Below are positions 2,494 through 58,788 of a stretch of DNA of 64,000 nucleotides, piece by piece (the first letter of the stretch is position 1; every line of letters starts with the position of its first letter). The notes under the pieces were generated by a model. That model was not told where the DNA came from. It was given only the letters and a program-made list of their open reading frames with translations, and ran no database searches. The translations under genes were made by a program, and so were the position numbers. The stretch covers positions 139,769 through 203,768 of the forward strand of contig JAAXWR010000001.1 of the NCBI GenBank assembly GCA_013334825.1. The letters run 5' to 3'. This stretch comes from Candidatus Yonathbacteria bacterium (GTDB taxonomy: Bacteria; Patescibacteriota; Minisyncoccia; Phycocordibacterales; JACNGX01).

Positions 2494-2529
2494 AAACAAG
2501 ATGCAATCAATAGAAGAGTATGATATTCT

Positions 2530-3267
2530 TTGGGGATGAAAGGAAAAACGTTTGTACATATACACCCTCTTACACGAGTTGTGAATGACGTCGTGCGGGC
2601 GTTTGTCTCACTTGGTTTTGAGGTTGCAGGTGGTCCAGAGATGGAGTCAGCATATTACAATTTTGATAAACTCAATTTCCCCAAGGATCATCCGGCCCGT
2701 GATATGCAGGACACATTTTGGATAAAAGACGTACCCAATACACTCCTCCGTACACATACGTCTCCGGTACAGGCACGGTTTATGGAGGTGCACAAACCAC
2801 CGTTTGCCATTGTTGTGCCTGGAAAAGTGTTTCGCAATGAAGCGACTGATGTGACGCACGAAATGCAATTCTTCCAGATTGAAGGATTGGTTGTGGGAAG
2901 TGATATTACGATGGGACACCTCAAAGGCACACTCGAACACTTTTTGAAGAACCTGTTTGGAAAAGATGTCCCCATCAGATTGCGCCCAAGCTTCTTTCCG
3001 TTCGTTGAGCCGGGTGTTGAAGTGGATATGCAATGCTTTAAGTGTGGCGGTTCGGGATGTGCAACATGCAAAAAGACGGGCTGGATTGAAATACTCGGTG
3101 CCGGTATGGTGCATCCGAACGTGCTTCTTGCCAGCGGTATCGACCCGAAGAAGTGGCAAGGATTTGCATTCGGTATGGGTGTCGATCGTGTGGCTATGCT
3201 TCGGTATGGGATTGATGATGTACGGCTCTTGTACACGGGAGATCTGCGGTTGGTTAGTCAATTTTAG
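2530..3267 (+). CDS. pheS: phenylalanine--tRNA ligase alpha subunit, catalytic core only (N-terminally short, 245 aa)
   Basis: Class-II aaRS motifs [77 protein letters not shown]. The only upstream in-frame ATG (2501) is in another frame and hits a stop. Confidence 0.9.
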
Positions 3268-3441
3268 TACAGACGCGCCTGGCCCGCACCCTTGTGGTGC
3301 TGGGGGACACACGCGGAATAAACGCGAAACATCGCGGAAGAGATACGAATTTCCTAGGGCGATACTGTTCTAAGAACAAATTGGCTGACGAGTTCTCAGA
3401 ATGTATTTAGAGGAAATTATTGGCAATATTTTATTCATTAA

Positions 3442-4311: not shown

Positions 4312-4376
4312 GTTATATATTATGTTTGTTACCGTCTCTATATTCCTAAATTCTAATTTCTAACTTCTTACGTCCT

Positions 4377-6737
4377 ATGCTCGTCTCATACAATTGGCTT
4401 AAAAACTATCTTGGCGACAGTGCGCCGACACCGGAAAAGATTGCGGAGCTTCTTACGCATGGGGCATTTGAGATTGAAGAGATGCGCACAGAGGGGAATG
4501 ATACGCTCATTGATGTGGATGTACTCCCGAACAGGGCGCATGACTGTTTGTGTCACAAGGGTATTGCGTGTGAAATTGCGCATCTCGCGAACATACCGTT
4601 TATCAAAAAATCTGGTGAATCTGTTCCTGTTACGTCCGACAAAACCATTTCTATTGCGGTGGAAGATACTGTTGCGTGCAAACGCTATAGTGTACGAGTC
4701 ATTGAGAACGTGACAGTGACAGACTCCCCGGCATGGCTCAAAGAGCGTCTTACTGCGATCGGACAACGCTCTATCAATACGGTTGTTGATGCCAATAACT
4801 ATACGATGTATGACATGGGACAGCCACTCCATGCCTTTGATATGGATAAACTGGCTGGGGGCATTGTCGTACGCCGTGCCAAAGACGGAGAGTCGCTTAC
4901 GACATTGGATAATAAACAGGTTATACTTTCTTCTGAGGATTTGACGATGTCCGATGGAGAAGGGCTGCTTGCCATTGCCGGTATTAAAGGTGGGAAGAAA
5001 GCCGAGGTAGATGCGCAGACAACAACTATCGTCATTGAATCGGCGAACTTTCTCGGTTCGGCGGTACGGAAAACTTCCGTGCGTACCGGTATTAAGACAG
5101 ATTCTGGAAAGCGTTTTGAAAACGGGCTCACACCAGAAATTGCACATGAAGCGATGGAACAAGTGACGGCGCTTATCTTGGAACTTTCTCCAGGAGCAAA
5201 AGCGGGAGAGATTGTTGATGTATATCCCAAGCGTCCGGCACCGTATCAATGTGGTTTCGCGCTACCTCATGTGAATAAGCTCTTAGGGACAGCATTGTCT
5301 CAGGACGAAATAACACATATCTTAACGCAACTAGAACTTCCGTATAGTGTCGTAGAACATCCACGAGCGCATATCGGAGGGCGGGCGAAAACATGTTTGC
5401 ATACACCGCATAAAATCGGCGCGAGTATTACCTATGATGCTCCACAGGCATTTGATTGTTCGTCGCTTATTGCATATCTCTATGCCGATGCAGGGATGCA
5501 AATACCGCGCATGACGGTTGATCAGTATGTCTTTGGAGAAGAGATTACGAAAGAACAGTTGCAAGAAGGGGATGTTGTCTTTTTCAATTCACAGGATGGA
5601 AATATTTTTTATGAAACAAAAGAATATTTTCCAGGGGTATCTGTTCCCGAAGGTGTTGATCATTGTGGATTGTATATAGGGAATGAACAAATTATTCATA
5701 GCTCACGAAAAAATGGGAGAGTGGCGCAGGAGAGTATGCAGACCATGTCTGAGACGTATACCATTGTCGGATATCGTCGCATGCCACATATTGATGAGAC
5801 ACACGTTGCTGTTACTGTTCCTGCGGAACGTCTTGATATCCGCATCGCTGAGGACTTGATTGAAGAAATCGGTCGTGTGTATGGGTATGACAAGATTGCC
5901 CCGAAAGAGCCGTTCGTGCTTCACTCGCCGACAGTTCTTCCGATATATTATGTATCAAACGCCGTGCGTTCTGTGCTGAACAAAAATGGATGTAGTGAAA
6001 TATACACATCATCATTCAGAAATGTTGGCGATATCGAAGTGCTCTATCCTGCCGCTTCAGATAAAAATTTCTTGCGTACGGATCTCGCGACGAGTATGAT
6101 GGACCGTCTCGCATTCAATGCGCGCAATATGGATTTGTTTGGCATGGACCATATTGTAATGTTTGAAATCGGAAGCGTTTTCACAAAGGCAAAAGGGGAG
6201 CAGGTGCTTCTCTGTATTGGTGCCATGTATCCGCAGATGAAAGAAGGAAAAGCAAAAGAAACAGCGAAAGGATATATGACTGAGATGATGAACTCTCTCT
6301 CAAGCGCGCTTGGGATAGAAGGGGTCGTCTTTTTCTCTGAACAAGAAACAGAAAAAGGGTATGTGGTGGAAATAGACCTCGGCGCACTTTCATCGGAGGT
6401 AACGATTCCTGATACATACGGAGACGTGCTTCTCACTTCCGATACGATGCCCCTCTACAAACCATTTTCCGTGTATCCGTTTATGACACGTGATATTGCC
6501 TTTTGGACTCCCGCAGGAACAAGTGCTGATGAGGCACGCGAAGTTGTCGTCGGAGAAGGGCACCCACTCATTATCCGCACAGATATGTTTGATACATTTG
6601 AAAAAGACGAACGTGTGTCGTATGCGTTCCGTATAGTATTTCAAGCGGTTGATAGAACGCTGACTGATGAGGAAGTGAATGCGGTGATGGAGGGGGTGTA
6701 CGCGCGGGTTGGTGAGAAGGGATGGGAGGGACGCTAG
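4377..6737 (+). CDS. pheT: phenylalanine--tRNA ligase beta subunit lacking the N-terminal OB-fold tRNA-binding domain and carrying an NlpC/P60-like insertion in the B5 domain
   Basis: B3/4 start DVDVLPNRAHDCLCHKGIACEIA, B5 ends DEITHILTQLELP ... VAVTVPAERLDIRIAEDLIEEIGRVYGYDKIAP, and a C-terminal FDX-ACB domain (FRIVFQAVDRTLTDEEV). Between the two B5 halves lies a ~150-aa NlpC/P60-like segment (FDCSSLIAYLYADAGMQIPR ... GDVVFF ... DHCGLYIGNEQIIHSS). Confidence 0.9.
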   Translation: MLVSYNWLKNYLGDSAPTPEKIAELLTHGAFEIEEMRTEGNDTLIDVDVLPNRAHDCLCHKGIACEIAHLANIPFIKKSGESVPVTSDKTISIAVEDTVACKRYSVRVIENVTVTDSPAWLKERLTAIGQRSINTVVDANNYTMYDMGQPLHAFDMDKLAGGIVVRRAKDGESLTTLDNKQVILSSEDLTMSDGEGLLAIAGIKGGKKAEVDAQTTTIVIESANFLGSAVRKTSVRTGIKTDSGKRFENGLTPEIAHEAMEQVTALILELSPGAKAGEIVDVYPKRPAPYQCGFALPHVNKLLGTALSQDEITHILTQLELPYSVVEHPRAHIGGRAKTCLHTPHKIGASITYDAPQAFDCSSLIAYLYADAGMQIPRMTVDQYVFGEEITKEQLQEGDVVFFNSQDGNIFYETKEYFPGVSVPEGVDHCGLYIGNEQIIHSSRKNGRVAQESMQTMSETYTIVGYRRMPHIDETHVAVTVPAERLDIRIAEDLIEEIGRVYGYDKIAPKEPFVLHSPTVLPIYYVSNAVRSVLNKNGCSEIYTSSFRNVGDIEVLYPAASDKNFLRTDLATSMMDRLAFNARNMDLFGMDHIVMFEIGSVFTKAKGEQVLLCIGAMYPQMKEGKAKETAKGYMTEMMNSLSSALGIEGVVFFSEQETEKGYVVEIDLGALSSEVTIPDTYGDVLLTSDTMPLYKPFSVYPFMTRDIAFWTPAGTSADEAREVVVGEGHPLIIRTDMFDTFEKDERVSYAFRIVFQAVDRTLTDEEVNAVMEGVYARVGEKGWEGR

Positions 6738-6780
6738 GCGCGGAAGCAATGCGGAACATACGCAGAACGTCGCGGAAAAA

Positions 6781-6807
6781 ACCAACACGTAATGTTGGTT
6801 TTTTTAT
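6781..6807 (+). terminator. rho-independent terminator of pheT
   Basis: accaaca-cgtaa-tgttggt hairpin followed by T7. Confidence 0.6.
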
Positions 6808-6840
6808 ATGTGGTTTGTAGAACAGACGGAGGTTTTAGGA

Positions 6841-6868
6841 AAAAACCGCCGGACGTGTGTCCGGCGGG
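6841..6868 (-). terminator. rho-independent terminator for the minus-strand small ORF
   Basis: ccgccgga-cgtgtg-tccggcgg hairpin preceded by A6 on the plus strand, which is a U-tract on the minus-strand transcript. Confidence 0.55.
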
Positions 6869-6877
6869 ATGTCTCAT

Positions 6878-7201
6878 CTACAGGGAGTAGCGACTCCTTC
6901 TCCTCTTTTTTGAGAGGAGGGCAAAGAGTTCAAGGTATATCCCTACGAGCATAACCCCGACTGACATGAGTCCAACCCCTAAAAATGCAAATTTTATGTG
7001 CTCAAAGACTGCCATGAGAACATAAATAATTATAAAAATTAAAAACAAAAATAAAGCGAAAACAAAACCTATACCAAGGGCTGATGCGACCGATAGTGCG
7101 AACGCATAAAAATTCTCAAACACGACTGCGCACGGGTCGATGTTTGAATTATCAACCGCAAGTGCGGTCGGCATTTTCGGCATTCTCTCTTTTTCTTTCA
7201 T
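6878..7201 (-). CDS. small hypothetical membrane protein (107 aa)
   Basis: Two strongly hydrophobic helices and a basic C-terminus; has its own terminator. Confidence 0.45.
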   Translation of the reverse strand: MKEKERMPKMPTALAVDNSNIDPCAVVFENFYAFALSVASALGIGFVFALFLFLIFIIIYVLMAVFEHIKFAFLGVGLMSVGVMLVGIYLELFALLSKKRRRSRYSL

Positions 7202-7500
7202 TTTTTTGTTTGTTACACGTCTTATTGGCGTTCAGAAGAAAAAAAGGCCAAAAAACGTAGGTTTTTGGAAGGAACTTATATATGTATATAATATAATCTT
7301 TTATGTAGAAAGTCAATAAGGCACAGATGCCTGATTTTTGGTATACTATATCTGTAAGAGAACATACCCAAGGGGGTATTTTGTAGTTATTTCAAAAGGT
7401 TTTTCTTTTCTTTTGTTTTGTAGTTTATATTTTAGTATCTATAACTCATCGCGTCTCATCCCGTTTTTTATCGTTTATAGTTAATCGTTTTCCTGTATTT

Positions 7501-9654
7501 ATGGCTTCACCCAAAGACAATCAAAAAACGCCAAAAAAGAAAGAAAAAGAAAGTGATGCTGGACACCATTACAGTGCGGCGGATATTTCCGTTCTTGAGG
7601 GTCTTGAGCCAGTACGCAAGCGTCCGGGCATGTATATCGGATCGACTGGTACTGATGGTTTGCACCACCTCGTCTGGGAAATTTTTGATAACGGCCGCGA
7701 TGAAGCGATGGGAGGATATGCGACACATGTTGAAGTGACACTTCTTCCCAATGGTCGTATCCGTGTTGTGGATGATGGTCGTGGTATTCCCGTAGATATT
7801 CACCCCAAGACAAAAGTCTCCGCGCTTGAAACGATTATGACGACACTCCATGCCGGAGGAAAGTTTGGCGGTGACGGGTATGCAAAAGCAACGGGAGGTT
7901 TGCACGGTGTTGGTGCATCGGTGGTGAATGCTCTTTCTGTGCATACAAAAGTGATGGTTCATCGTGATGGGGGTATTCATATGCAAGAGTACGCGCGCGG
8001 AAAAGCAAAAGCGAAAGTAAAGAAAATTGCTTCTTCAAAAGCACATGGCACGGTTGTTATATTTGAGCCAGATGAGGAAATTTTTTCTGAAATGGGTTTT
8101 AGTTGGAATAAAATCGTTACCCATATTCGCCAACAAGCATATCTTGTGAAGGGAATGCGAGTAACTGCGATTGATGCCCGAGAATATAAAACAGTGAAAG
8201 GATTGCCCGATCTTGAAAGTGAAGATGCGTTTTTCTTGTCCGCGCTTCCTCTTGATGTGCCGAGTCGCGCGTATTATTTTGAAGGAGGACTGACATCATT
8301 GGTACGCCATTTGAATGGCGCGCAAAAACCGATTCATAAAAATATTTTTTATATTGAAAAAGAAACCGATGATAAAGTTGGTGTGGAAGTCGCGTTCCAG
8401 TATGTGGACGATATTTCCCCTCGTCTTGCTTCTTTTGCAAATTCAACACCAACAAGTGAAGGAGGTATGCATGTAACAGGCTTTAAGACTGCCCTCACGC
8501 GTGGACTGAACAATTACGCGCGGAAGAACAATCTTTTGAAAGAAAGTGAAGAAAATTTTACCGGCGATGATGTGCTCGAGGGGATGACAGTTGTTGTGTC
8601 AGTCAAGTTGAAAGAGATTCAATTCGAAGGTCAGACAAAGGCAAAGCTTGGTAGCGTGGAAGCACGCGGGGCTGTGGAATCGGTCTTTGGTGAAGCGCTT
8701 TCGGAATATCTTGAAGAACATCCCGATGATGGAAAAGCGATTGTGCAAAAAGTCGTCCTTGCTCTGAAGGCGCGCAAAGCCGCCAAGGCCGCCAAAGACT
8801 CAGTGCTCCGCAAAGGTGCGCTTGAAGGCATGACGCTTCCGGGTAAACTCGCAGATTGTCAAACGAAGAGTGCTGAAGAATCTGAACTTTTTATTGTGGA
8901 AGGAGACTCAGCTGGTGGCACTGCGAAAGGTGGGCGTGATCGTCGTACGCAGGCGATACTGCCACTCCGTGGAAAGATTTTGAATGTGGAACGCGCGCGA
9001 CTGGACAAGATGCTTGCATCAGAACAAATTAAAAATATTGTTGTTGCGCTCGGTGCTGCCATTGGCGACGCACTTGATTTGGAAAAATTGCGCTATCACA
9101 AAATTATTATCGCGACGGACGCCGACGTGGACGGATCACATATCGACACACTTATCCTGACACTCTTTTTCCGGTACTTCCGTCCGATTATTGAGCACGG
9201 GTATCTCTATATCGCATTGCCTCCGCTGTATAAAATCAAACAGGGGAAAGAGATTCGCTATGCCTATACTGATGAAGATAAGAGTCGTGTGCTTCTTGAA
9301 CTCGGTGTTGATGAAAGTGCGATAGAAGAGAGCGAAGGAGAGGGTGAAGGAGACGATGCATCCACTGAAGAAAACATCGAAGAGACAACACCGACGAAAG
9401 GTGGCAAAGGCAAAAAAGAAGAAAAAAAGAAAACTGGTAAAGTATCTATTCAACGCTACAAAGGTCTCGGAGAAATGAATCAAGACGAACTTTGGGAGAC
9501 AACCATGGACCCGGCTCGTCGTACATTAAAGCAAGTGAAGATTGAGGACGCGGAAGAAGCCGACAGAGTCTTTGACACGCTCATGGGCACCGATGTCCCA
9601 TCACGCAAGTCATTCATTCAAAACAATGCGAAGTACGCGAATATTGATGCGTAA
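7501..9654 (+). CDS. gyrB: DNA gyrase subunit B with a short acidic/lysine-rich insert near the C-terminus
   Basis: GHKL ATPase motifs (LHHLVWEIFDNGRDEA, GLHGVGASVVNALS) and Toprim (EGDSAGG, IIIATDADVDGSHI). The insert is EGEGEGDDASTEEN...GKGKKEEKKK just before YKGLGEMN. Confidence 0.9.
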   Translation: MASPKDNQKTPKKKEKESDAGHHYSAADISVLEGLEPVRKRPGMYIGSTGTDGLHHLVWEIFDNGRDEAMGGYATHVEVTLLPNGRIRVVDDGRGIPVDIHPKTKVSALETIMTTLHAGGKFGGDGYAKATGGLHGVGASVVNALSVHTKVMVHRDGGIHMQEYARGKAKAKVKKIASSKAHGTVVIFEPDEEIFSEMGFSWNKIVTHIRQQAYLVKGMRVTAIDAREYKTVKGLPDLESEDAFFLSALPLDVPSRAYYFEGGLTSLVRHLNGAQKPIHKNIFYIEKETDDKVGVEVAFQYVDDISPRLASFANSTPTSEGGMHVTGFKTALTRGLNNYARKNNLLKESEENFTGDDVLEGMTVVVSVKLKEIQFEGQTKAKLGSVEARGAVESVFGEALSEYLEEHPDDGKAIVQKVVLALKARKAAKAAKDSVLRKGALEGMTLPGKLADCQTKSAEESELFIVEGDSAGGTAKGGRDRRTQAILPLRGKILNVERARLDKMLASEQIKNIVVALGAAIGDALDLEKLRYHKIIIATDADVDGSHIDTLILTLFFRYFRPIIEHGYLYIALPPLYKIKQGKEIRYAYTDEDKSRVLLELGVDESAIEESEGEGEGDDASTEENIEETTPTKGGKGKKEEKKKTGKVSIQRYKGLGEMNQDELWETTMDPARRTLKQVKIEDAEEADRVFDTLMGTDVPSRKSFIQNNAKYANIDA

Positions 9655-9721
9655 GTTTTGAAAGATGAAAAACGAAATATGAAATATGTATAATTAACTC
9701 AAAGACAGACGTAAAGACAAA

Positions 9722-9759: not shown

Positions 9760-9787
9760 CATTTTTCTAATTTCTTATTCCTAGTTT

Positions 9788-9979
9788 CTAGATTCTCTCC
9801 TTCAGCTCTGCGACGAGCTTTGCGATATCACTCTCTTTCTCCTCTGCGATTTGATTCCACACGGCGACGAGTGTTTCATCGCTTTGCGCATCTTTCAGAT
9901 AATCATCTTTGATACGCCAAAGGCTGGTATGTTCTTCCACGATTTGGCGCATAATATTGTAGGCATTGTTGTCTAACAT
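9788..9979 (-). CDS. possible small hydrophilic helical protein (63 aa), unknown function
   Basis: ORF track only; no overlap with other genes; low complexity. Confidence 0.3.
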   Translation of the reverse strand: MLDNNAYNIMRQIVEEHTSLWRIKDDYLKDAQSDETLVAVWNQIAEEKESDIAKLVAELKERI

Positions 9980-10092
9980 GGTGATAGGAGATTAGAAGAT
10001 TAAAAATTAGAAATATGGGGCTACGAAGTACGAACTTATACGAACACTACTGAACACGAATAACTATATTGATGAGTTTGTGTTCGTATGTT

Positions 10093-10118
10093 CTCCTGCA
10101 CCACGCGGGGTGCAGGAG
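10093..10118. repeat. REP-like palindrome (copy a, slightly divergent) with TACGAAGTACGAA-type flanking inverted repeats at 10020..10035 and 10129..10145
   Basis: ctcctgcacc-acgcgg-ggtgcaggag. Confidence 0.7.
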
Positions 10119-10151
10119 AAGCGTACTATTCGTACTTCGTAACCAATTAAC

Positions 10152-18133: not shown

Positions 18134-18448
18134 GATAAGTTAACGTTTCGTTATTGAGATACTGTTTCCAGAAAGTACTATACATAAATAATATGAATTT
18201 GCAATACTTGAAATGAGGAGTTAGAAATTAGGAATATCAAACTGGCACTCGAATCAAGAATTATGAATTAAGAATATTGACAAATAAAACCAGCTCCCAA
18301 TATTTTATAGAACTACGAACTACTCCGCCCAGCCCTTTTTAAAAGAGCTGGGCGGACCCGCGCGCTCCGCGTAGCGGAGACGTCGCGGGGAACTAAGAAC
18401 TACGTCATTCATGGGTATGGCAGATTGTTTTTCTGTTATACTTCTGGC

Positions 18449-19117
18449 ATGAGCAAAGAATCGTATACCTACACCATTGGCATTGATGAAGCGGGACGAG
18501 GACCTTTGGCGGGGCCGGTGTCTGTGGGTGTGGTGGGCATACCTGCCGAACACCAAAGTGTCGTGGAGGAAATGTTCGCACTTCTTAAAGGGCGAGACTC
18601 AAAAAAATGGTCGGAGAAAAAACGAGAAGAATGGTTCGAAAAAATTTGCGCGGCACGGCATGCCGGACTCATTGTGTTTTCTGGTGTGATGGTTGGCGCG
18701 CGTACTATTGATGAAAAAGGGATTATGTATGCAGTGAAGAGTGCCTTGGCACGAGGACTTGAGCGTCTTGATATGAATCCTCTCCATGTGCGAGTGGTTC
18801 TTGATGGGGGACTTCATGCACCTGCCGTATACGAACATCAAGAGACGATTATCAAAGGTGATGAAAAAGAGATTGTCATTGCAATGGCGTCTATTGTCGC
18901 CAAAGTAACTCGTGACCGACATATGCGTACTCTTGCGGAGAAATATCCCACATACGGATTTGAGGTACACAAGGGATATGGGACAGCGAAGCATTACGCA
19001 GCGATAGAGACATATGGGACATGTGAGGAGCATCGGAGAAGTTTTTTAAAGGGGAGCGGAAACTCGCGGAACGAACGCGGAATGTCGCGGAATTTACACG
19101 GACACAATTGGGGATGA
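18449..19117 (+). CDS. rnhB: ribonuclease HII; the C-terminal ~30 aa are encoded by a GCGGAA-type tandem array
   Basis: YTIGIDEAGRGPLAGPV and the downstream RNase HII motifs; start taken at MSKESY. Confidence 0.8.
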   Translation: MSKESYTYTIGIDEAGRGPLAGPVSVGVVGIPAEHQSVVEEMFALLKGRDSKKWSEKKREEWFEKICAARHAGLIVFSGVMVGARTIDEKGIMYAVKSALARGLERLDMNPLHVRVVLDGGLHAPAVYEHQETIIKGDEKEIVIAMASIVAKVTRDRHMRTLAEKYPTYGFEVHKGYGTAKHYAAIETYGTCEEHRRSFLKGSGNSRNERGMSRNLHGHNWG

Positions 19118-19288
19118 ACACGGATAGACGTGGAATATTTAGGAAGAGAGGTCTAAATTTGCAAAATAAAGATGAAAACAAGAGTAACACTTCTCGGGCG
19201 TCCTCCGCGTTGATCTGCGTTTGTTCAGCATAGCTTCCGCGTAACGCGCTTGCGCGTTGGGACGGTTTCTGCTATAGTATTGCCCACT

Positions 19289-19615: not shown

Positions 19616-19687
19616 CATGATATACTGGAGCAAGCGGCGTACATTGACCGCTTGTCCGTTTATCAGTACTCATCGTTCTTTTTTACA

Positions 19688-20584
19688 ATGGCAAATCGAC
19701 ATCTCTGCAGAAGTATCGTCATGCAATCCCTCTTCGAGTGGGATTTTGGTGGTTGTACTGCCGACCTCGAAGAAATCGTCAAGCGTAATGCCGCGGAGTT
19801 TGCTCCCGGTATTCCCGATACTGACTTTATGGTAACGCTTGCGCAAGGTATTGCAGACAAGCGTGCCAAGATTGACGAAGTGATTGTTGCCGCCGCTCCT
19901 GAATGGCCGATTGAGAAAATTGCGGTCCTTAACCGCACTATTTTGCGAATTGGATTGTTCGAACTTCTTTTTGGTGATAGAAAGGAAGTCCCACCAAAAG
20001 TTGCTATCAATGAAGCCATCGAACTTGCGAAATCTTTTGGTGGAGATTCTGGGAGTCGCTTTGTGAATGGTGTACTTGGTGCTGTGTATCGCGAAATGGG
20101 CGAGCCAGGCAAGGATCAAACAAGCAAAAAGAAAGAGCCGATTGATATTACTAAACTTCCCATCGATCGTCTCATTGGAGCTGTTGTATATACTAAGACA
20201 GGGAACGGTGTTAAACTCGCTCTTCTCCGTGACGTTTTTGGTAAATGGACGCTTACCAAAGGACATCTCAAAGATGAGGAAACAGATACAGATGGTGTTG
20301 TACGCAAAGCACTTGATGAAATGGGTGCTGTTATCATCGAAGTCAAAGACCTTCTGGGTGAGAATGAATACCTTGCGAATACAGAAGATGGTGGTAAGTT
20401 GCGCAAACAGGTACGCTATTTCCTCGCGGAAGCAAAAGATGGTGATCTTCGTCCCGGTGAATCTGGAGGTATTGCGGATGCAAAATGGTTTACTCTTCCT
20501 GAAGTGATTGACCTTACTATGTATGACGATATTCTTCCAATTGTTACAAAGGGTGTAAATATTCTCCTTGGTAAATCGTCGTAG
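19688..20584 (+). CDS. nusB: NusB antitermination factor fused to a C-terminal NUDIX hydrolase domain
   Basis: N-terminal half has LNRTILRIGLFELLF and KVAINEAIELAKSFGGDSGSRFVNGVL (NusB). C-terminal half has GKWTLTKGHLKDEETDTDGVVRKALDEMGAVI (Nudix box Gx5Ex7R[KE]xxEExG) and the rest of the Nudix fold. Confidence 0.8.
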   Translation: MANRHLCRSIVMQSLFEWDFGGCTADLEEIVKRNAAEFAPGIPDTDFMVTLAQGIADKRAKIDEVIVAAAPEWPIEKIAVLNRTILRIGLFELLFGDRKEVPPKVAINEAIELAKSFGGDSGSRFVNGVLGAVYREMGEPGKDQTSKKKEPIDITKLPIDRLIGAVVYTKTGNGVKLALLRDVFGKWTLTKGHLKDEETDTDGVVRKALDEMGAVIIEVKDLLGENEYLANTEDGGKLRKQVRYFLAEAKDGDLRPGESGGIADAKWFTLPEVIDLTMYDDILPIVTKGVNILLGKSS

Positions 20585-20663: not shown

Positions 20664-21380
20664 ATGACTTCCCCTATCAATCCTGATATTTGTGATACAT
20701 TTGAAAAACGCGCGGGCGTCGCTTTTGTTGATAAGATGTTGTTGCAACAAGCGTTCACACATCGTTCATATTTGAATGAGCATGTGGATTTGCCACATAC
20801 GCATAATGAACGTCTTGAATTTCTCGGCGATGCTGTCCTTGAATTATCTGTAACGGATTTCTTGTACAGAACGTATCCTCAAAAAACAGAAGGTGATTTG
20901 ACGGCATATCGCGCCGCCCTTGTGAATACCATAAGCATTTCAAACGCTGCAAAAGATCTTCGTATGGATGAATGTCTTCTCCTTTCACGTGGAGAAGCAC
21001 GCGGAACAGAAAAAGCGCGTCAATATATTTTGGCGAACACATTTGAAGCAGTGATTGGCGCAATTTATTTGGACCAAGGGTATGCTGCTGCGGATGCGTT
21101 TATTAATCGTCATTTGACGCCATACATAGCCGAAGTTATTAAACGTCGTCTCTGGCAAGATGCGAAAAGTTATTTTCAAGAGCGCGCGCAAGATGAAGTT
21201 GGTATTACTCCCTCATACAGTGTTCTTGAAGAAGTAGGACCTGATCATGATAAAGAGTTTACTGTTGGGGTATATTTGGGCAACGAACTTGTTGCTAAAG
21301 GGACAGGACGTTCCAAGCAAGACGCGGAGCAAGAAGCAGCAAATAAAGGGCTCGATGCAAAAGCATGGAGAAAGGAATAG
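20664..21380 (+). CDS. rnc: ribonuclease III
   Basis: HRSY, ERLEFLGDAVLEL, and a C-terminal dsRBD. Confidence 0.9.
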   Translation: MTSPINPDICDTFEKRAGVAFVDKMLLQQAFTHRSYLNEHVDLPHTHNERLEFLGDAVLELSVTDFLYRTYPQKTEGDLTAYRAALVNTISISNAAKDLRMDECLLLSRGEARGTEKARQYILANTFEAVIGAIYLDQGYAAADAFINRHLTPYIAEVIKRRLWQDAKSYFQERAQDEVGITPSYSVLEEVGPDHDKEFTVGVYLGNELVAKGTGRSKQDAEQEAANKGLDAKAWRKE

Positions 21381-21483
21381 TAGACGCGGAAGTTATGCGG
21401 ATCAGACGCGGAACCTACGCTGAAATAGTCCGGAAGTTTGCAAGCAAACTTCCGCACACTGGTATCTGTACAATATCTAAAAC

Positions 21484-21511
21484 AAAAAACGCCACGTGAA
21501 GTGGCGTTTTT
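21484..21511. terminator. bidirectional rho-independent terminator
   Basis: aaaaaacgccac-gtgaa-gtggcgttttt. Confidence 0.65.
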
Positions 21512-22978: not shown

Positions 22979-23020
22979 TGAATCAAGAATCAAGAATCAA
23001 GAATCAAGAATCAAGAATCA
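22979..23020. repeat. perfect 7-bp tandem repeat (GAATCAA) x6
   Basis: gaatcaagaatcaagaatcaagaatcaagaatcaagaatc read directly; a member of the dispersed GAATCAA/GAATCAC/GAAGCAA family. Confidence 0.85.
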
Positions 23021-23241
23021 AGAATCTGCTACAGATTAAGTATGACAGGTGGGGGATAAAAACACAAGTGAAGTTTTTGAATGCTCTTTCTTTTTATATT
23101 CCTAATTTCTAGATTCTAATTTTTTCGTCAATTTCTTGATTCTTGCTTCGTGATTCGTGCTTCGCTTTCATCTGTATCTATGAGCCTTTCTCACTACACA
23201 CTAACACCTCACGCAATAATTCTGTTATAATACATCCACTC

Positions 23242-27060: not shown

Positions 27061-27215
27061 CAGGTCGGAGGTCGTTCAAATGTGAGAAAAAAGAGAATTA
27101 AAATCTGCACGAACATCGGCCGTATGAAAACATAGACGCGGAAAGAAACGCGACTGAAATAGTCCACGCTTTCTGTGTATACATACGATTGTTCGTTACG
27201 TTGTTCATGAGAATT

Positions 27216-27280: not shown

Positions 27281-27308
27281 AGAATTCGTTTACCTCCGTT
27301 CAGTATTC

Positions 27309-29390
27309 TTAATTCTTGCTTCGTGATTCTTGATTCTCGTCTACCACTTCCATATCAAGGACGCGTGCGTCCAAATCTGCGCGGACGATGCGGATACGAA
27401 TGGGGTCGCCCAAGCGATAGCGTTTTTTGGTACGTTCTCCGATGATGGCATATTGTTTCTCATCAAGATTAAAAAAGTCATTACCGAGATCACGAATATG
27501 CACCAGTCCTTCCGCTCGCGTTTCTTTTTCTTCCACGTAAATACCAAATTTTGTTACACCAGAAATCGTGCCATCAAATTCTTCGCCGACATGACTTTGC
27601 ATGTATTCTACTTGTTTGTATTTGATAGATGCACGCTCGGCGTCCGCGGCATGCTTTTCCATCTCGGACGCATAGCGACTCATCGCTTCGTATGAATCAC
27701 GTTCCGTGTCTTTGACTGTGCCTCCTGAAAGGTGTGTTGCGAGGAGCCGGTGCACCATGACGTCGGGGTACCGACGAATGGGAGAGGTAAAGTGTGTGTA
27801 GTGTTCAAATGCAAGTCCAAAGTGCCCGATATTTCCCGTCGCATACACTGCCTTTGCCATGGAACGTATGGCTGCCGTAGTGATGAGTTGCTCTTCGGGC
27901 GTGCCTTTGACCTGCGCGAGGAGTTTGTTGATATCACGAGAGTTGGCACCCTGTTCGCCGATGGGCAATTCATATCCAAGTGTTTTTACAAACGTTGCGA
28001 GTTCGCGGAGACGGTCAGCATCGGGGACATCGTGAATACGATACACAAATGTCTTTTCCATGCCTTTGTCTTTGGCACCAATCCATTCCGCCACCCGCTT
28101 GTTGGCGAGAAGCATGAAGTCTTCAATGAGCTTGTGTGCGTCGAGACGCTCTTTGACATACACACCGAGTGGCTTGCCGTGTTCATCAAGATGAAAACGC
28201 ACCTCGTCTTTATCAAAAGAAATCGCGCCTTTGGCGAAACGTTCCTTTTGAAGGATATGCGCGAGCGTGTTGAGCGTGATGAGTGTGTCGCGAAGTGTGT
28301 CATCTTTCCCGTCAATAATCTCTTGGGCTTCTTCATAGGCAAAACGGCGGTCCGAGTGAATGACTGTTCTGCCAAACCACTCGTCCACAATTTCGGCACG
28401 ACCATGGGCGAGCGCATCAGCAGAAAACGTGAATATTGCCGAGAACGCAAGCTTGTCTTCGTTTGGGTTGAGACTACAGAGATCATTGGAGAGTACTTCG
28501 GGAAGCATCGGTATGGTGCGGTCTACGAGATAGACTGATGTGCCACGACGCGCGGCCTCTTTGTCGAGGGCAGTACCGGGGACAACGTAATGCGCAACAT
28601 CAGCGATGTGTACGCCCACTTCAATCGTTCCATCAGCAAGCGTTTGAAATGACAATGCATCATCAAAATCTTTGGCATCCGCAGGGTCAATGGTACAGGT
28701 GAGTACACCGCGCATGTCACGTCGGCGAGCAATTTCTTCGTCCGTAATGACACGGGCAATGGCATCTGCTTCACGTTCTACTTCTTCGGGAAAATCGGGG
28801 ACAATGCCTTTTTCAAGAGCAATGGCACGCATCTCCGCGTCATTGTCTCCTTTCATACCGATGCGTTCAATGACTGTGCCGACGGGATTGCTTCGTGGGT
28901 CGCGCCATTCTCCGATGCGAACATATACTTTTTCACCATCAGCAAGTGACGCGCTTTCTTGTTCAGGAATAATGATATCGCGATATACACGCTGATCGTC
29001 GGGGATGATAAAGACAATACCTTGTTCGCGAGAAACCGTCCCAACGAATTGTGTTTTTGCGCGAGTAACAACCGCAGAAACAGTACCAAAGAGTTCCTCT
29101 CCCTCACGGTGGGGAAGGAGAGAGATAGTAACAATATCGCCATGAAGAGCAGTATTTAAGTCATCTGTCTCGATACGAATACGTTCATCACGATTGTCGG
29201 GAGAGAGGAGTACATAACCGACACCTTTGCCAGTAATAGAGATGACACTCTCAAGTTCTGTGGGAAGAGGTCCTTTGGGAACAAATGCGCGTGGGTTGGG
29301 TCGGTCTGTACGACGAACAGGACCGCGGGATTGTCCATGCGCGGAAGCCCCGTGCGGATTCTTGTTGTTTGGTTGATGGTGTTGTGTCAT
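27309..29390 (-). CDS. rnr: ribonuclease R
   Basis: Cold-shock/OB N-terminus, RNB catalytic domain (TIDPADAKDFDDALSF), and a C-terminal S1 domain. Start taken at MTQHHQ because the ORF-track N-terminus is read-through of a repeat region. Confidence 0.88.
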   Translation of the reverse strand: MTQHHQPNNKNPHGASAHGQSRGPVRRTDRPNPRAFVPKGPLPTELESVISITGKGVGYVLLSPDNRDERIRIETDDLNTALHGDIVTISLLPHREGEELFGTVSAVVTRAKTQFVGTVSREQGIVFIIPDDQRVYRDIIIPEQESASLADGEKVYVRIGEWRDPRSNPVGTVIERIGMKGDNDAEMRAIALEKGIVPDFPEEVEREADAIARVITDEEIARRRDMRGVLTCTIDPADAKDFDDALSFQTLADGTIEVGVHIADVAHYVVPGTALDKEAARRGTSVYLVDRTIPMLPEVLSNDLCSLNPNEDKLAFSAIFTFSADALAHGRAEIVDEWFGRTVIHSDRRFAYEEAQEIIDGKDDTLRDTLITLNTLAHILQKERFAKGAISFDKDEVRFHLDEHGKPLGVYVKERLDAHKLIEDFMLLANKRVAEWIGAKDKGMEKTFVYRIHDVPDADRLRELATFVKTLGYELPIGEQGANSRDINKLLAQVKGTPEEQLITTAAIRSMAKAVYATGNIGHFGLAFEHYTHFTSPIRRYPDVMVHRLLATHLSGGTVKDTERDSYEAMSRYASEMEKHAADAERASIKYKQVEYMQSHVGEEFDGTISGVTKFGIYVEEKETRAEGLVHIRDLGNDFFNLDEKQYAIIGERTKKRYRLGDPIRIRIVRADLDARVLDMEVVDENQESRSKN

Positions 29391-29531
29391 AGGGGCAGTA
29401 TAGCAGAAAATGTGAAATAGGGAACACGAACGCCGTGTACGGACGAGAAGCAAGAAGCATGAATACGAAAGATGAATGAAGAAATATGAAATTAGAAATA
29501 TGGAGTTACGAAGTACGAACTTGTACGCTTG

Positions 29532-29556
29532 CCCTGCACCCCACGTGGTGCTAGGG
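29532..29556. repeat. REP-like palindrome (copy b, inverted orientation, with the B flank gttacgaagtacgaacttgtacgcttg)
   Basis: ccctgcacc-ccacgt-ggtgctaggg. Confidence 0.7.
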
Positions 29557-29739
29557 AACATACGAAACAAGACGGGAAGCACGAATCAAGAATCAAGAAG
29601 CAAGAATACGAGACGTGAATTATGAATAATGAATTAAGAATTATGGGACGGACGAGGGGTTAGAAATTAGAAATTAGGAAAATGGGGCTACGAAGTACGA
29701 ACCAATACGAATAAATAACACTCCTTTTTAGTTGTCATT

Positions 29740-30463: not shown

Positions 30464-30513
30464 AATAAAGAAATGAAAACACGGCCTTCAGGCCGTGTTT
30501 TCATTTCTTTATT
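30464..30513. terminator. bidirectional terminator made of a 23-bp perfect stem
   Basis: aataaagaaatgaaaacacggcc-ttca-ggccgtgttttcatttctttatt followed by ttt. The stop of the minus-strand ORF lies inside the 3' arm. Confidence 0.75.
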
Positions 30514-31186
30514 TTTCGAACAGGTCAGGAACTTTTTTCAGCGTTTCCTTTGCCTGTTCAGCTTCATTATAAGAATTATATGGTACTGGAAGAATTTTTG
30601 TTTCTCCGTTTTTCTTTCCATTTTCTTCCATATGGTATCGGATATGATATTTAGATGTCGCAATATCCTGTAGAATCTCAATTCCAGAGCCGTCCCTATT
30701 GCTTCCCGCGATATTTCTAAAAGCACTAAGTGGTAATATATCTTCACCGCACTGGTGCAGGATTGCATTAGTATTTTCATCACAATCTTCTTCATATAAA
30801 ACATCAGTGGTCTCGATTCTCTCCTGCCCATTTGCTATTGCAGAAAGGATGTCCTCAGGAATATTTTTCAATGTTGTTTGTTTTGAACTATCTTCATATT
30901 CCCCAACTCTCTTGTTAAGTACTTGGATTGTAAGAATGATGGGCAAGTCTCCCTTGTCTGTATTGGGAACATCTTTTTCAGCGTCTTTTTTATAGTAATT
31001 ATAAAATGTCTCGTCAGAGCTGCGATAGAAAATATCTTTATCATCGTCAGCTCTTTTGTAGTAATAAACTCTCTCTGTATGTTCAAACGTATTGCCTTCA
31101 TCAAAAAATTTCTGTGCCGCCTCAAATTTTTCAGCCGGGGACTTCTCTTCGGAGATGTTACCGGCTGCGGGTATATTTTCATGCAT
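30509..31186 (-). CDS. hypothetical acidic protein; AT-rich orphan gene inserted between rpsP and khpA
   Basis: 225-aa ORF with no recognised motif; opposite strand to the surrounding operon. Confidence 0.5.
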   Translation of the reverse strand: MHENIPAAGNISEEKSPAEKFEAAQKFFDEGNTFEHTERVYYYKRADDDKDIFYRSSDETFYNYYKKDAEKDVPNTDKGDLPIILTIQVLNKRVGEYEDSSKQTTLKNIPEDILSAIANGQERIETTDVLYEEDCDENTNAILHQCGEDILPLSAFRNIAGSNRDGSGIEILQDIATSKYHIRYHMEENGKKNGETKILPVPYNSYNEAEQAKETLKKVPDLFEK

Positions 31187-31878: not shown

Positions 31879-32111
31879 CTTATAGAAATTTTTATTGACA
31901 TATATACCATATAAACGTACTCTATGTGTGTAAGTGTTTTCTTTCGAGGGTAATTTTTTCGGTATTCTTTTCTGCCTTAATTCTGTATCAGTCTCGTATA
32001 GTTTTCGTATTGTTCCCGCGTTCGTTTTGCGAATTTCCGCGTCTCATCCGCATTGTTTCTGCGATGTTCCGCGTTTGATCCGCATCGTGTCCGTGTAGGT
32101 TCCACATAGGT

Positions 32112-32789
32112 ATGCATTTTCACTTTATCACCATTTTCCCGAATATGTTTACGGACTATATGCATGAGTCCGTGCTTGGTCGTGCAACGAAACAGGGTGT
32201 ACTCGACTTTTCTGTATACGATGTAAGAGACTTTGCAAAAAATAAATGGAACAAGATTGACGACCGCCCATATGGTGGCGGTCCGGGCATGGTGATGGAA
32301 GCAGCGCCAATACTTGCCGCGGTGAAAAAAGCGATAGGGAAGAAGGATAGAAAAAAAATAAAGATTGCTATCATGGCCCCACGAGGGACACAATTTACCA
32401 ATGAACTTGCGCGGAAGTGGGCAAACAAATACGACCATGTGATTCTTATTGCGGGCAGATATGAGGGGATTGATTCTCGTGTAAAAAAGATACTGCGTGC
32501 TGAAGAAGTATCTATCGGTCCCTATGTCGTGACAGGCGGAGAATTGCCTGCGCTTCTTATTGCCGATGCTGTGGCACGTCAAGTCTCTGGAGTGCTCGGG
32601 AAAGGGGAATCGCTCGAAGAGACGCGCGTGTCATCGGGAGAAATGTATACACGTCCAGAAGTGCTTGAGTATGAAGGTAAGAAGTATAAAGTTCCCAAGG
32701 TGCTTCTTTCAGGTGACCCGAAGAAAATAGATGCATGGAAGCTGGACGCGGAACAAATGCGGAACAAACGCGGAAACTCGCGGATCTGA
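32112..32789 (+). CDS. trmD: tRNA (guanine37-N1)-methyltransferase; the last ~15 codons are a GCGGAA tandem array
   Basis: FITIFPNMF, RPYGGGPGMVM, and a SPOUT knot. Confidence 0.88.
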   Translation: MHFHFITIFPNMFTDYMHESVLGRATKQGVLDFSVYDVRDFAKNKWNKIDDRPYGGGPGMVMEAAPILAAVKKAIGKKDRKKIKIAIMAPRGTQFTNELARKWANKYDHVILIAGRYEGIDSRVKKILRAEEVSIGPYVVTGGELPALLIADAVARQVSGVLGKGESLEETRVSSGEMYTRPEVLEYEGKKYKVPKVLLSGDPKKIDAWKLDAEQMRNKRGNSRI

Positions 32790-33051
32790 TGTGGAAGAAA
32801 TATGAAGTTCTTAGAGTAAGACTGTTCTTCCACGACGTCTCCGCTACGCGGAGCGCGCGGGTCCGCCCATTGTGATGTGCAGATAAACAATATCAAAATA
32901 AAAAATTCAAATGCTTTAAACGCTCGTGTTTTAGTCTTTGAATGTTGGTGATTGGAATTTGTTTAGGATTTAGTGCTTAAGATTTCGATTTTTTATATGG
33001 GTATACGCAGATTGTTTCTATAGAATATATATCGTATCCACACACATTGTA

Positions 33052-35379: not shown

Positions 35380-35593
35380 TTTTGGTAAAAAGAATTTGAG
35401 ATTTTTCGAAATCATTCGGAATGAGTTTTAAGTGTGTCCTGTATCCTACATGGTATATGATAACGAAGTGTTGAGTTGCGAGTGACAAGAAGAAACAGGA
35501 TGAGTTTCAAGAATACTTACGAATAACGAATATTTACGAATATACGAATACTCCCTGTTTTAGTACATATGCCACTTGTGTCATTCGTACATT

Positions 35594-35618
35594 CCCCAGC
35601 ACCACATAGGGTGCGGGG
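35594..35618. repeat. REP-like palindrome (copy c)
   Basis: ccccagcacc-acatag-ggtgcgggg. Confidence 0.65.
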
Positions 35619-35684
35619 CAGGCGTACACATTCGTTATTCGTATGCTTATATTTCTTCATTCATCTTTCGTATTCGTACTTCTC

Positions 35685-35760
35685 TGCACTGTACACCACG
35701 TAGGATGCACGGCACGCCATGCGGGGTGCAGGGCAAGCGTACAAGTTCGTACTTCGTAAC
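35685..35760. repeat. REP-like element (copy d; degenerate double palindrome plus B flank gcaagcgtacaagttcgtacttcgtaacc)
   Basis: ...gcggggtgcagggcaagcgtacaagttcgtacttcgtaacc. Confidence 0.65.
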
Positions 35761-35887
35761 CCCATATTCCTAACCCTCAATTTTATATTTCTTCATGCAT
35801 GTTCCGTTTCGTATTCTTGATTCGTGCTTCTTGATTCCCGTCTCGTTTCGTATGTTCGTACAAGTTCGTACTTCGTAATCCTTTATT

Positions 35888-35911
35888 CCCTGCACCACGT
35901 AGGGTGCAGGG
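35888..35911. repeat. REP-like palindrome (copy e, consensus, with the C flank cgagtgtccgtccctataacc)
   Basis: ccctgcacc-acgtag-ggtgcaggg. Confidence 0.8.
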
Positions 35912-35998
35912 CACGCTTGATTCGAGTGTCCGTCCCTATAACCTATATTCTCTAACCTATTTCCTAGTTTCTTATCCACAGACGAAAACCCTTGACTA

Positions 35999-51082: not shown

Positions 51083-51358
51083 TTCTTACTGGATTTTACA
51101 ACCTGCAAAGCTTTAGTGAAGTAGGTGACTCAGCATCCGCGTTTTAATAGTTTTTCCGTGTATCTAAAATCATGTTCAGAATGAGAGACTTCACTGAGTT
51201 ACGAGTTATAAGTTTCAAGAACGCTTACGAATAACGAATACGTACAAATATACGAATACGACTCTTTTTCTTTTTCATTTTATCGTTTACCGTTTATAGT
51301 TTTCTCTTCTCATATTTCTAATTTCATATTTCATCATTCGTTTTCCGTATTCTTGATT

Positions 51359-51382
51359 CCCTGCACCACGTAGGGTGCAGGG
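51359..51382. repeat. REP-like palindrome (copy f, consensus, with the C flank cgagtgtccgtctctataacc)
   Basis: ccctgcacc-acgtag-ggtgcaggg. Confidence 0.8.
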
Positions 51383-51484
51383 CACACGTGCTTCGAGTGT
51401 CCGTCTCTATAACCCATCACCTCTGACCTCTTTCCTACATTTGTCTGTCCTTATAACCTCTCAACTTCTAATAACCCGCCTTCT

Positions 51485-55128: not shown

Positions 55129-55301
55129 AAGTGAATTTTTAGGAAATAGGTTATAGGGATAGACATCCGAATCAAGAATCACGAAGCATGAATCAAGAGT
55201 ACGAAAGATGAATGAAGAAATATGAATATACGAATAACGAATGTGTACGAATATACGAATAAAAAGCTCATTCTACACGTGTTATATATCATTCGTATGT
55301 T

Positions 55302-55326
55302 CCCTAGCACCACATGGGGTGCAGGG
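55302..55326. repeat. REP-like palindrome (copy g, with the B flank caagcgtataagttcgtacttcgtaacc)
   Basis: ccctagcacc-acatgg-ggtgcaggg. Confidence 0.7.
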
Positions 55327-55520
55327 CAAGCGTATAAGTTCGTACTTCGTAACCAATCTTTGTCATCCTGAACATGATTTTAGATCCACGGAGAAACTGT
55401 TAAAACGTGGATTCTGGGTCATCTTTTTTCAGCAAGTTAAAAAGTCTAACAGGACAAGGATGGGAAGACTTGATAAATAAAAAGTATACAGCATAATTTT
55501 TTCCAGTAACCAGTAACACC

Positions 55521-58126: not shown

Positions 58127-58654
58127 TTATCGAGGCATGACACCAAGTGCATCATTGAAACGATTGATATAATTGAAAAGTCCAATTGCCGCGGTAAGCT
58201 CAACAATTTGCCCATCATTGTAATGTACGTTAAGTTCCGTGTAGATTTCCTCAGGCACTTCAAGTGCATTTTTTGTGACCGCTTCCGCATAGCGAACGGC
58301 GATTTGTTCGTCGGGACTCATCTGTGCAATATCGGTATCAACAAGACGCATGTCTTCATCAGAGACGCCAAGTTTTTTCATCATGGCTTCTGTCACTCCA
58401 ACGCAATACGCACATCCGTTTAGTTTTGAAACTTTGTATGCAATCTTCCATTTATTATCTTGCTCGACAAGTCCAGGACCCATGGTTGCTTTAAAGAGCG
58501 CATAAAATGTCGCAAGGATTTCTGGACGATGTGCCATGACGCGTGCCCATTCGGGAACGCTTCCACGAGTGTCAATAAATTCTTGAAAAACTGGTGTCGC
58601 GACACCAACAGCTTCGGTATCTTCTATGATATGTACTTGTGTAATGACGGTCAT
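58127..58654 (-). CDS. carboxymuconolactone decarboxylase (AhpD-like) family protein
   Basis: CMD-fold core with the NGCAYCV redox motif. Confidence 0.75.
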   Translation of the reverse strand: MTVITQVHIIEDTEAVGVATPVFQEFIDTRGSVPEWARVMAHRPEILATFYALFKATMGPGLVEQDNKWKIAYKVSKLNGCAYCVGVTEAMMKKLGVSDEDMRLVDTDIAQMSPDEQIAVRYAEAVTKNALEVPEEIYTELNVHYNDGQIVELTAAIGLFNYINRFNDALGVMPR

Positions 58655-58788
58655 AAGAATTAAGGGTTAAGAATTAATAAAGAACACCGCTTTTTGTTAA
58701 GTATACCACATGATATACATGAATGAATTGAAAAGGGGATAGGTGTATTGGTCTCTGATGTGTTGACGATATTACTTAAATTGATTTT

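Follow-up and report, generated by a model that had tools for sequence, protein, structure and literature searches.

Rickettsia palindromic elements (RPE) are 100–150 bp palindromes that occur in spacers and RNA genes and also, in frame, within conserved protein genes; Ogata and colleagues are said to have described them in 2000 as selfish DNA in protein-coding genes, and to our knowledge no transposase is known for them. In proteobacteria, repetitive extragenic palindromes and their mosaic arrangements (REP/BIME) are single imperfect extragenic palindromes with a GTAG-type head, tied to RAYT transposases. The parC iterons of plasmid R1 are 11-bp direct repeats next to the par genes, and the repeat units of Borgs are near-perfect copies. 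The Borg tandem repeats are reported to arise independently at each locus (PMC9879509). Direct repeats of the TAACTGA heptamer occur in Beggiatoaceae, Cyanobacteria and Bacteroidetes, and the short tandemly repeated repetitive (STRR) sequences of cyanobacteria are likewise dispersed and intergenic (PMC4679880). Eleven-bp direct-repeat operators are bound by OmpR/PhoB-family regulators and by ArcA (PMC3798270, PMC4173790). The present analysis concerns tandem arrays of a 10–12 nt unit beginning GCGGAA in a 64-kb stretch of a Candidatus Yonathbacteria genome (contig JAAXWR010000001.1, positions 139,769 to 203,768; hereafter the window). These arrays are read here, with about even confidence, as a lineage-specific, dispersed and insertion-prone repeat of Patescibacteria that behaves like RPE or REP.

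The analysis covered the window, syntenic contigs of relatives and contigs obtained from motif-pattern scans, the relatives and scan matches carrying L labels (L001, L036, L248 and so on). A first-pass annotation, made from the letters of the window, had described degenerate GCGGAA-type arrays at seven sites; when read directly, the sequence at each of these sites matched its description, and the statistics are non-random. The heptamer GCGGAAC occurs 19 times against 6.9 expected, a count of at least 19 being reached in 0 of 100 shuffles. Same-strand spacings of GCGGA, a periodicity check that the annotation had proposed, have maxima at 10–12 nt (11 plus-strand pairs), 21–22 nt and 31–32 nt. 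Chains of at least three CGCGGAA-like cores at 10–12 nt spacing number four in the window and zero in 100 dinucleotide shuffles, and seven arrays exceed a weight-matrix chain score of 27.0, the maximum of 20 shuffled strands. These seven, which are also the only window sites recovered by an nhmmer profile made from the arrays, comprise the five plus-strand sites of the first-pass annotation, its minus-strand array upstream of trmD, and a new minus-strand array at 19203–19242. Six of the seven arrays originally cited are significant; the remaining site, 27128–27180, holds two units and is not significant alone. The shared array tail reported for it is real, an exact 12-mer (CTGAAATAGTCC) being present both there and in the rnc array, and the gene names given (pheS, pheT, rnhB, rnc, rnr, MFS, trmD) were confirmed by Pfam. 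Neither the chain score nor the nhmmer profile found an array between 33 and 64 kb of the window. The arrays and the structures attached to them are as follows, with chain scores where available.

3301–3350, plus strand: pheS array, sense, five units of which the first and last are degenerate, 34 nt past the stop codon (3265–3267) and behind a small hairpin; score 35.7, nhmmer E 2e-7.
6738–6777, plus strand: pheT array, four units, beginning on the base next to the stop codon (6735–6737), with the spacer of its last unit entering a terminator stem; score 43.3, nhmmer E 1e-10.
6776–6805, two-way: pheT terminator, a canonical hairpin (AAAAAACCAACA / TGTTGGTTTTTT) directly after the array, read from the sequence.
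19054–19145, plus strand: rnhB array, nine units with the first four well formed, spanning the last ~20 codons, where it encodes GSGNSRNERGMSRNLHGHNWG, and running past the stop (19115–19117); score 73.2, found by nhmmer.
19203–19242, minus strand: rpmF-upstream array, four units, missed by the first-pass annotation, ending just 5′ of the −35 element of a predicted promoter (TTGCGC-17-TATAGT; rpmF start ~19289); score 37.1, nhmmer E 1e-9.
21384–21435, plus strand: rnc array, five units with the tail CTGAAATAGTCC, starting 3 nt beyond the stop codon (21378–21380); score 47.8, found by nhmmer.
21431–21454: rnc hairpin, CGGAAGTTTGC-AA-GCAAACTTCCG, in which the last array unit pairs with a single inverted one.
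21485–21511: rnc terminator, canonical, downstream of that hairpin.
27138–27168, plus strand: MFS mini-array, two units plus the tail CTGAAATAGTCC, antisense to the MFS gene, 78 nt from its start codon and 3′ of a strong predicted MFS promoter; identical in the relative L001.
32003–32117 (effectively 32016–32107), minus strand: trmD-upstream array, 10–11 units and the longest in the window, antisense and abutting the ATG (32112), its position kept in relatives with 4 to 12 units; score 83.5.
32746–32796, plus strand: trmD 3′ array, five units, spanning the last 14 codons, where it encodes DAEQMRNKRGNSRI, and continuing past the stop (32787–32789); score 54.7, nhmmer E 7e-11.
32791–32833: trmD 3′ hairpin, GTGGAAGAA ... 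TTCTTCCAC, in which the last degenerate unit pairs with an inverted one, without a T-run behind it.

To define the repeat, 89 units were parsed from the window and close relatives. Of these, 57 measure 11 nt, 30 measure 10 nt and 2 measure 12 nt, for a mean of 10.69 nt, bearing out the earlier estimate of about one helical turn. The 11-mers have the form GCGGAA-C-N-N-A-Y and the 10-mers GCGGAA-N-N-T-C, so that each unit combines an 8-nt conserved core (W-Y-GCGGA-W) with a free stretch of two or three bases. Only 3 of 71 adjacent unit pairs consist of two 10-mers, and the mean unit consequently stays near one turn of DNA. Adjacent 11-mers are less similar at their free positions than random pairs (0.89 versus 1.46 of 4), which indicates that the arrays are not products of fresh local slippage. 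The two bases ahead of each core recur in the order AT > AC > TC, which is the 32-bp period given by Tandem Repeats Finder. Together these features describe an ordered module of ~43 bp with four units of ~11, 11, 10 and 10–11 nt (consensus GACGCGGAAnnnATGCGGAACAAACGCGGAAnnTCGCGGAA), within which an 11+11+10 block makes up the 32-bp step by which arrays lengthen to 9–12 units. Fifteen arrays from differing loci and genomes align to this one four-unit module, the longer arrays being extensions of it, and full-length module matches were obtained by alignment and nhmmer at non-orthologous loci and in separate genomes. The ordered module is better evidence of common descent than the 13-mers shared between non-orthologous arrays, which were dropped as evidence of descent since they are expected by chance with ~3 free bases per unit.

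A period near one helical turn would also suit intrinsically curved DNA built from phased A-tracts, a possibility raised in the first-pass annotation, and some units do carry A5–6 or AATTT. However, a tract of A4 or longer, or of the AnTn type, is present in only 8 of the 89 units, and the conserved part of the unit is GCGGA rather than its A-rich part, leaving curvature a chance close to negligible.

Comparison with relatives on syntenic contigs (TrmD identities of 93, 85, 85, 84 and 81%; RnhB identities of 95, 84 and 77%) revealed rapid turnover. The trmD 3′ array has 5, 3, 4, 5 or 0 units and the trmD 5′ array 11, 12, ~5, a decayed set or 0; the rnc 3′ array has 5, 8 or 0, and the rnhB 3′ array may be present, reduced in length or absent. 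At the corresponding positions no array stands in L249 (rnhB), L248 (rnc) or L004 (around trmD). The element is, in other words, dispensable at any single site, and its unit number shifts quickly. The quoted translations of the array-coded ends of rnhB and trmD are correct, and these ends are indeed Arg/Asn/Ser-rich; the tails are nevertheless not conserved among RnhB and TrmD orthologs. They are found only in close relatives and vary among these, while distant homologues end soon after the conserved domain, ~20 residues earlier for RnhB and ~10 residues earlier for TrmD. With arrays absent from the same sites in relatives and with unconserved tails, the proposal of a gene-end device that the host requires does not hold. 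Within the arrays, the 95% RnhB relative differs at 8 of 132 bases, three of the eight substitutions falling in the core 5-mers, a class that accounts for about half of the array sequence; in this one close comparison, small in scale, no constraint on the cores is visible.

Copies were also encountered inside genes. In L036, titled Patescibacteria group bacterium, an array lies in frame within the Topoisom_bac domain of topA and encodes NAEQRGTYAEPRGI in a variable loop where homologues have a short link, and in L227 an array lies in frame within the Dus domain of dus. L223 has five arrays within a 23S rRNA gene bearing at least five group I introns, one of the arrays falling within an intron match, and L247 has one array within a 16S gene that carries a large insertion. 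(The Patescibacteria-like 23S gene of L223 spans 1184–8764, and two of its group I introns score above the Rfam threshold and three below; several of its arrays fall in inserted sequence.) These in-gene and rRNA copies show where the GCGGAA element can live. Taken with the sites in the window, it occupies insertion-tolerant DNA: gene-adjacent spacers, last codons, permissive loops, and rRNA intron or insertion sequence.

Beyond the clade, the matches listed from a metagenome pattern scan include low-GC, Patescibacteria-like contigs whose arrays are similar in style, and many unrelated tandem repeats; most of the high-GC matches listed are ordinary tandem repeats. Among the matches listed from a scan of genome contigs with the pattern GCGGAA(N4-6)x3, hits in unrelated phyla were due to chance or codon periodicity, and L036 alone was useful. 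In viral contigs, triple CGCGGAA at 10–11 nt spacing was found at 19 loci, as compared to 32 and 14 for two composition-matched controls. A common regulator was not found among the genes adjoining one recurrent high-GC motif family. A widespread CGCGGAA-binding factor was dropped from consideration because the viral counts resemble the controls and the high-GC hits are ordinary tandem repeats. Judged from the sequences compared, what is special to the lineage is that one and the same ordered module recurs across many loci. Two further elements recurred in the metagenome contigs. One, conserved and of ~120 nt (GGGAATTTAGCAGTGCC...(CCGCGGAAA)x3...GTGAAGTGAAATTTTTAGCC), is present in many contigs of one sample series; the other consists of modules ~170–270 bp apart, each with a CGCGGAA triple, in contigs of ~60% GC, one of them beside a tmRNA gene (contigs of the two elements: L129, L130, L135, L136, L143, L154, L163, L173, L180, L203, L208, L210, L219, L233; L128, L144, L218, L229, L245).

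The position of the arrays relative to genes follows a single rule. Sense arrays are located at or a few bases past stop codons, or overlap the last codons, as at pheS, pheT, rnhB (window, L250, L248), rnc (window, L249), trmD (window, L001, L125, L126), smc (L248) and rnr (L248). Antisense arrays lie directly 5′ of start codons or core promoters, as at trmD (window, L125, L126; decayed in L127 and L001), T2SSE (L125, L126), rpmF (window, L250) and the MFS mini-array. At 10 of 10 independent boundary positions in the clade, the GCGGAA strand is directed outward from the nearest gene, into the spacer, for which we calculate a chance of ~0.001 under random orientation, and coding overlaps are in sense in all six cases. 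Outside the clade, L192 and L215 are of the sense type, L198, L181 and L234 are of the antisense type directly upstream of Shine-Dalgarno/ATG starts, and L204 is ambiguous. Leading-strand orientation was ruled out as the cause: in L248, rnr and its 3′ array are both on the minus strand, separating gene direction from replication direction, and the array follows its gene. The first-pass annotation was accordingly right that arrays cluster at gene ends but not that they are specific to 3′ ends, since antisense copies precede start codons; "gene 3′ ends" covers only half of the pattern.

The same annotation had suggested that the arrays serve as a transcription-termination or 3′-untranslated-region device in place of absent intrinsic terminators. 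A sense array is indeed found at or just past the stop in seven boundary positions, and the remark that canonical terminators are few at array sites stands for pheS, rnhB and trmD, where no hairpin-plus-T follows the array. It fails at pheT and rnc, where canonical hairpin-plus-T terminators directly follow the arrays; terminators of this kind are widespread in the window. The array units are direct repeats rather than palindromic stem-loops, and the arrays themselves contain no GC-rich hairpin with a T-run. The mirror-image arrays at 5′ ends, the copies inside genes and the loss of arrays from the same gene ends in relatives also argue against such a device, as does the G-rich repeat RNA, which is unlike established Rho loading sites. 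A role in termination or at mRNA 3′ ends is, on balance, highly improbable.

The principal rival to the dispersed-repeat reading is a host boundary or regulatory DNA element: a docking platform for a sequence-specific protein, copies of which would line up head to tail along a single helical face, much as OmpR/PhoB-type regulators, ArcA and ParR do on 11-bp direct repeats. Such arrays would mark gene boundaries with a fixed polarity and act as a roadblock, insulator or promoter-proximal operator. The anatomy of the arrays is well suited to this, with an 8-nt conserved core, two or three free bases, a mean period of 10.69 bp with interspersed 10-mers, and four-unit modules. So is the constancy of their polarity, whichever the strand or gene end, together with the rpmF and T2SSE arrays ending just 5′ of predicted core promoters and the retention of positions among relatives despite unit turnover. 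What this rival does not accommodate are the copies inside topA, dus and rRNA introns, those in convergent spacers ahead of ordinary terminators, the trmD-upstream array that abuts the ATG and leaves no room for a promoter, the loss of arrays without replacement in close relatives, and the lack of core constraint in the single close comparison. A Pfam scan of the window also found no candidate binding protein. The boundary element is therefore considered fairly unlikely. A bolder version, in which the arrays form the cis part of a genome-wide polar boundary system of an ultra-small bacterium, with an oligomerising DNA-binding protein loading outward-facing at both gene ends and the in-gene copies being strays, is quite unlikely; such a system, if true, would insulate each gene from its neighbors' transcription or other traffic.

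A further explanation operates at the level of RNA, with (GCGGAA)n 3′ arrays pairing with (UUCCGC)n 5′ arrays for cleavage by RNase III or for protection of mRNA ends. The rnhB and rpmF arrays face each other and fold into one long imperfect hairpin (z = −2.2), which the 95% relative matches even better; the arrays on the two sides of trmD are complementary to each other (53 nt, 72%), and in the trmD-T2SSE spacer of L125 and L126 arrays again face one another. Arrays often end in a hairpin made of the last unit and a single inverted unit, and hairpin arms would account for the rule that arrays point into the spacer. Yet half of the array positions have no partner array (pheS, pheT, rnc, SMC, rnr), arrays are unpaired in centroid folds, and the arms around trmD are very unequal (11 versus 5 units). 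A mean period of 10.7 with 10/11 alternation lacks a clear meaning in single-stranded RNA, the in-frame copies within genes are unaccounted for, and an Rfam search of the window gave no family match at gathering score. A tRNA search gave no match either. Spacers are in any case structured in general (mean z = −2.4; −5.8 for the pheT spacer), a property not specific to arrays. As a general explanation RNA pairing is improbable, although pairing of facing arrays may matter at some sites.

Other candidate identities were rejected individually. DnaA-box arrays would require better than the 5 of 9 matches to TTATCCACA that were seen, and GC skew is positive across the entire window, indicating that it contains no replication origin or terminus. 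Extracytoplasmic function (ECF)-type promoters have the wrong GGAAC-to-CGT spacing; Rho loading sites are at odds with G-rich RNA; DNA uptake sequences are disfavored by too few single copies and by the tandem form; CsrA or TRAP-like RNA sites are unsupported; and antisense promoters at 3′ ends are missing a consistent −10 element.

A dispersed, insertion-prone repeat remains the favored explanation because it covers the spread over spacers, protein tails, loops and rRNA introns, the changes in presence and absence, the unconserved tails and the shared module. The outward orientation, established as a rule, would under this explanation be set by selection on tolerated insertions rather than by a 3′-end function. 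Translation of the GCGGAA strand gives 72% polar or charged residues and 1.7 stops per 100 codons, while the opposite strand gives 38% hydrophobic residues; a sense insertion would thus add a polar peptide with few stops, of a kind tolerable in a protein tail or loop. The GCGGAA strand also contains 20 ATG, 10 of them with GGA 3–8 nt upstream, as compared to four ATG, none with GGA, on the opposite strand. Upstream of starts, the sense strand would add decoy GGA-spacer-ATG sites, and only the antisense copy would survive. Filtering of this kind explains the polarity only in part. Two features, the strong conservation of the core compared with the free bases and the spacing of one helical turn, suggest that the module is read by a protein; the core is probably where such a protein docks, either to bind the element or to propagate it. 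If only copies with intact cores are propagated, cores would stay alike while free bases drift. For the host, the effects would be collateral: untranslated regions would be lengthened, hairpins would occasionally form with inverted copies, and Arg/Asn/Ser-rich tails of varying extent would be added at C-termini.

Several observations weigh against this explanation. Each core position is ~92% conserved, far above the free bases, a difference that host-level selection would explain as well, and the dispersal of 10-mers among 11-mers looks as if made to suit binding along a single helical face. Outward polarity holds also for non-coding copies past stops (pheS, pheT, rnc, SMC), which filtering leaves unexplained. 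The array sites compared showed neither a target-site duplication nor a terminal inverted repeat, no enzyme or mechanism of spread was identified, and near-identical array copies are absent within the window, so that recent activity is not shown. Finally, the in-gene and rRNA copies come from contigs found by motif search and carry no frequency information.

The TrmD protein of the window is identical to one from a Candidatus Yonathbacteria metagenome-assembled genome, on a 450-kb contig, in keeping with a place in Patescibacteria (Parcubacteria group). Pfam places the arrays among the following genes of the window: pheS (2530–3267), pheT (4377–6737), rnhB (end 19117), rpmF, a NusB-NUDIX fusion, rnc (20664–21380), smc, an MFS transporter gene and rnr (both on the minus strand), rpsP, khpA, trmD (32112–32789), type II secretion system (T2SS) E and F, rpoB, rpoC, dnaG, rpoD and others. 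The long rpmF open reading frame (ORF) is probably over-extended; its conserved start is at ~19289, and the conserved promoter TTGCGC-17-TATAGT sits only ~13 nt ahead of it, so that the leader would be very short. T2SSE similarly has TGTATAAT ~10 nt ahead of the ATG. The pheT product carries an NlpC/P60 (cell-wall peptidase-like) domain at residues ~351–464, between B3_4 and B5; a second assembly of this strain shows the identical annotation. A single ORF (19652–20584) encodes NusB joined to a NUDIX hydrolase domain, a fusion kept in L248 and L249. Between khpA and the trmD-upstream array, three relatives have a Bro-N domain gene (L001 9016–9861, L125 5528–6353, L127 559–1384), followed in L125 and L127 by a separately called ORF of 82–87 aa; the window has no Bro-N gene and instead has an unannotated 225-aa minus-strand ORF (30509–31186) between rpsP and khpA.

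Other repeats were noted in the window. A second and more abundant tandem family has a 7-nt period of the form GAAnnnn (GAATCAA x6.7, GAAATAT, TACGAAT and others) and occurs in many spacers, often as inverted pairs, at 4337–4368, 9659–9688, 9764–9790, 18251–18275, 22980–23026, 23133–23164, 27305–27337, 29447–29717, 35500–35850, 51208–51350, 55169–55262 and 58654–58677. By eye, the purine-rich strand of these 7-nt arrays mostly faces away from the nearest gene; for genes in general, the purine fraction of the sense strand is 0.447 beside start codons (pyrimidine-rich) versus 0.523 after stop codons. A dispersed hairpin family (CCCTGCACCACGTAGGGTGCAGGG) flanked by TTCGTA-type repeats is found at 10083–10125, 29523–29566, 35584–35626, 35723–35761, 35877–35919, 51348–51390 and 55292–55334, and the hairpin at 3281–3306, between the pheS stop and its array, resembles it. 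A 40-nt GC-rich element (hairpin CTCCGC-TAC-GCGGAG) has two inverted copies with 98% identity and unrelated flanks, at 18349–18388, upstream of rnhB, and at 32830–32869, just after the trmD 3′ array.

Patescibacteria genomes are tiny and little non-coding DNA is expected in them, but here a repeat family fills spacers, lengthens essential proteins (RNase HII and TrmD; elsewhere topoisomerase I and Dus) and sits in rRNA introns. This bears on genome evolution, on gene annotation, as stops and C-termini move with unit number, and on whether hidden DNA-binding or mobilising proteins exist, for which outward polarity and one-turn spacing provide a handle for finding the protein that reads the motif. 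A search of the full-text literature found no description of the GCGGAA element.

Among described systems, RPE resemble the element as short dispersed repeats in spacers, RNA genes and, in frame, protein genes (topA in L036, dus in L227, the tails of rnhB and trmD) whose encoded peptide is tolerated; they differ in that the GCGGAA module is ~43 bp with four direct 10/11-nt sub-repeats, has no internal dyad, is expandable and belongs to an unrelated phylum. REP/BIME are similarly abundant extragenic repeats at gene ends, often between stop and terminator, in both orientations and able to form hairpins. In contrast to these imperfect palindromes, the GCGGAA units are direct repeats with a helical period, and neither RAYT (IS200/IS605-like) nor another transposase was found among the window ORFs scanned with Pfam. 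The TAACTGA and STRR repeats share the placement of one short motif in tandem at many intergenic sites, often near start codons and occasionally in ORFs, as well as lineage restriction and an obscure function (PMC4679880), the GCGGAA arrays being present at seven sites in 64 kb and in relatives. Those repeats are, however, near-perfect with a 7-nt unit (PMC4679880), whereas GCGGAA units of 10–11 nt combine an 8-nt core with a free spacer in a four-unit module of strict polarity. Borg repeats are likewise tandem, evolve fast, occupy spacers and the ends of genes and give rise to disordered stretches of protein (PMC9879509); the GCGGAA arrays differ from them in having one diverged motif family common to all loci. 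The sites of OmpR/PhoB-family regulators and ArcA and the parC iterons share with the arrays conserved bases plus a variable spacer, with 2–10 such units following one another head to tail, one to each helical turn. They differ in location, lying at defined promoter positions or beside par genes, while GCGGAA arrays are at or just 5′ of a −35 element only for rpmF and T2SSE and are otherwise past stops, in convergent spacers, in genes or in introns. By analogy, these regulator and partition sites would be the best "works like" model for how a protein might read the module.

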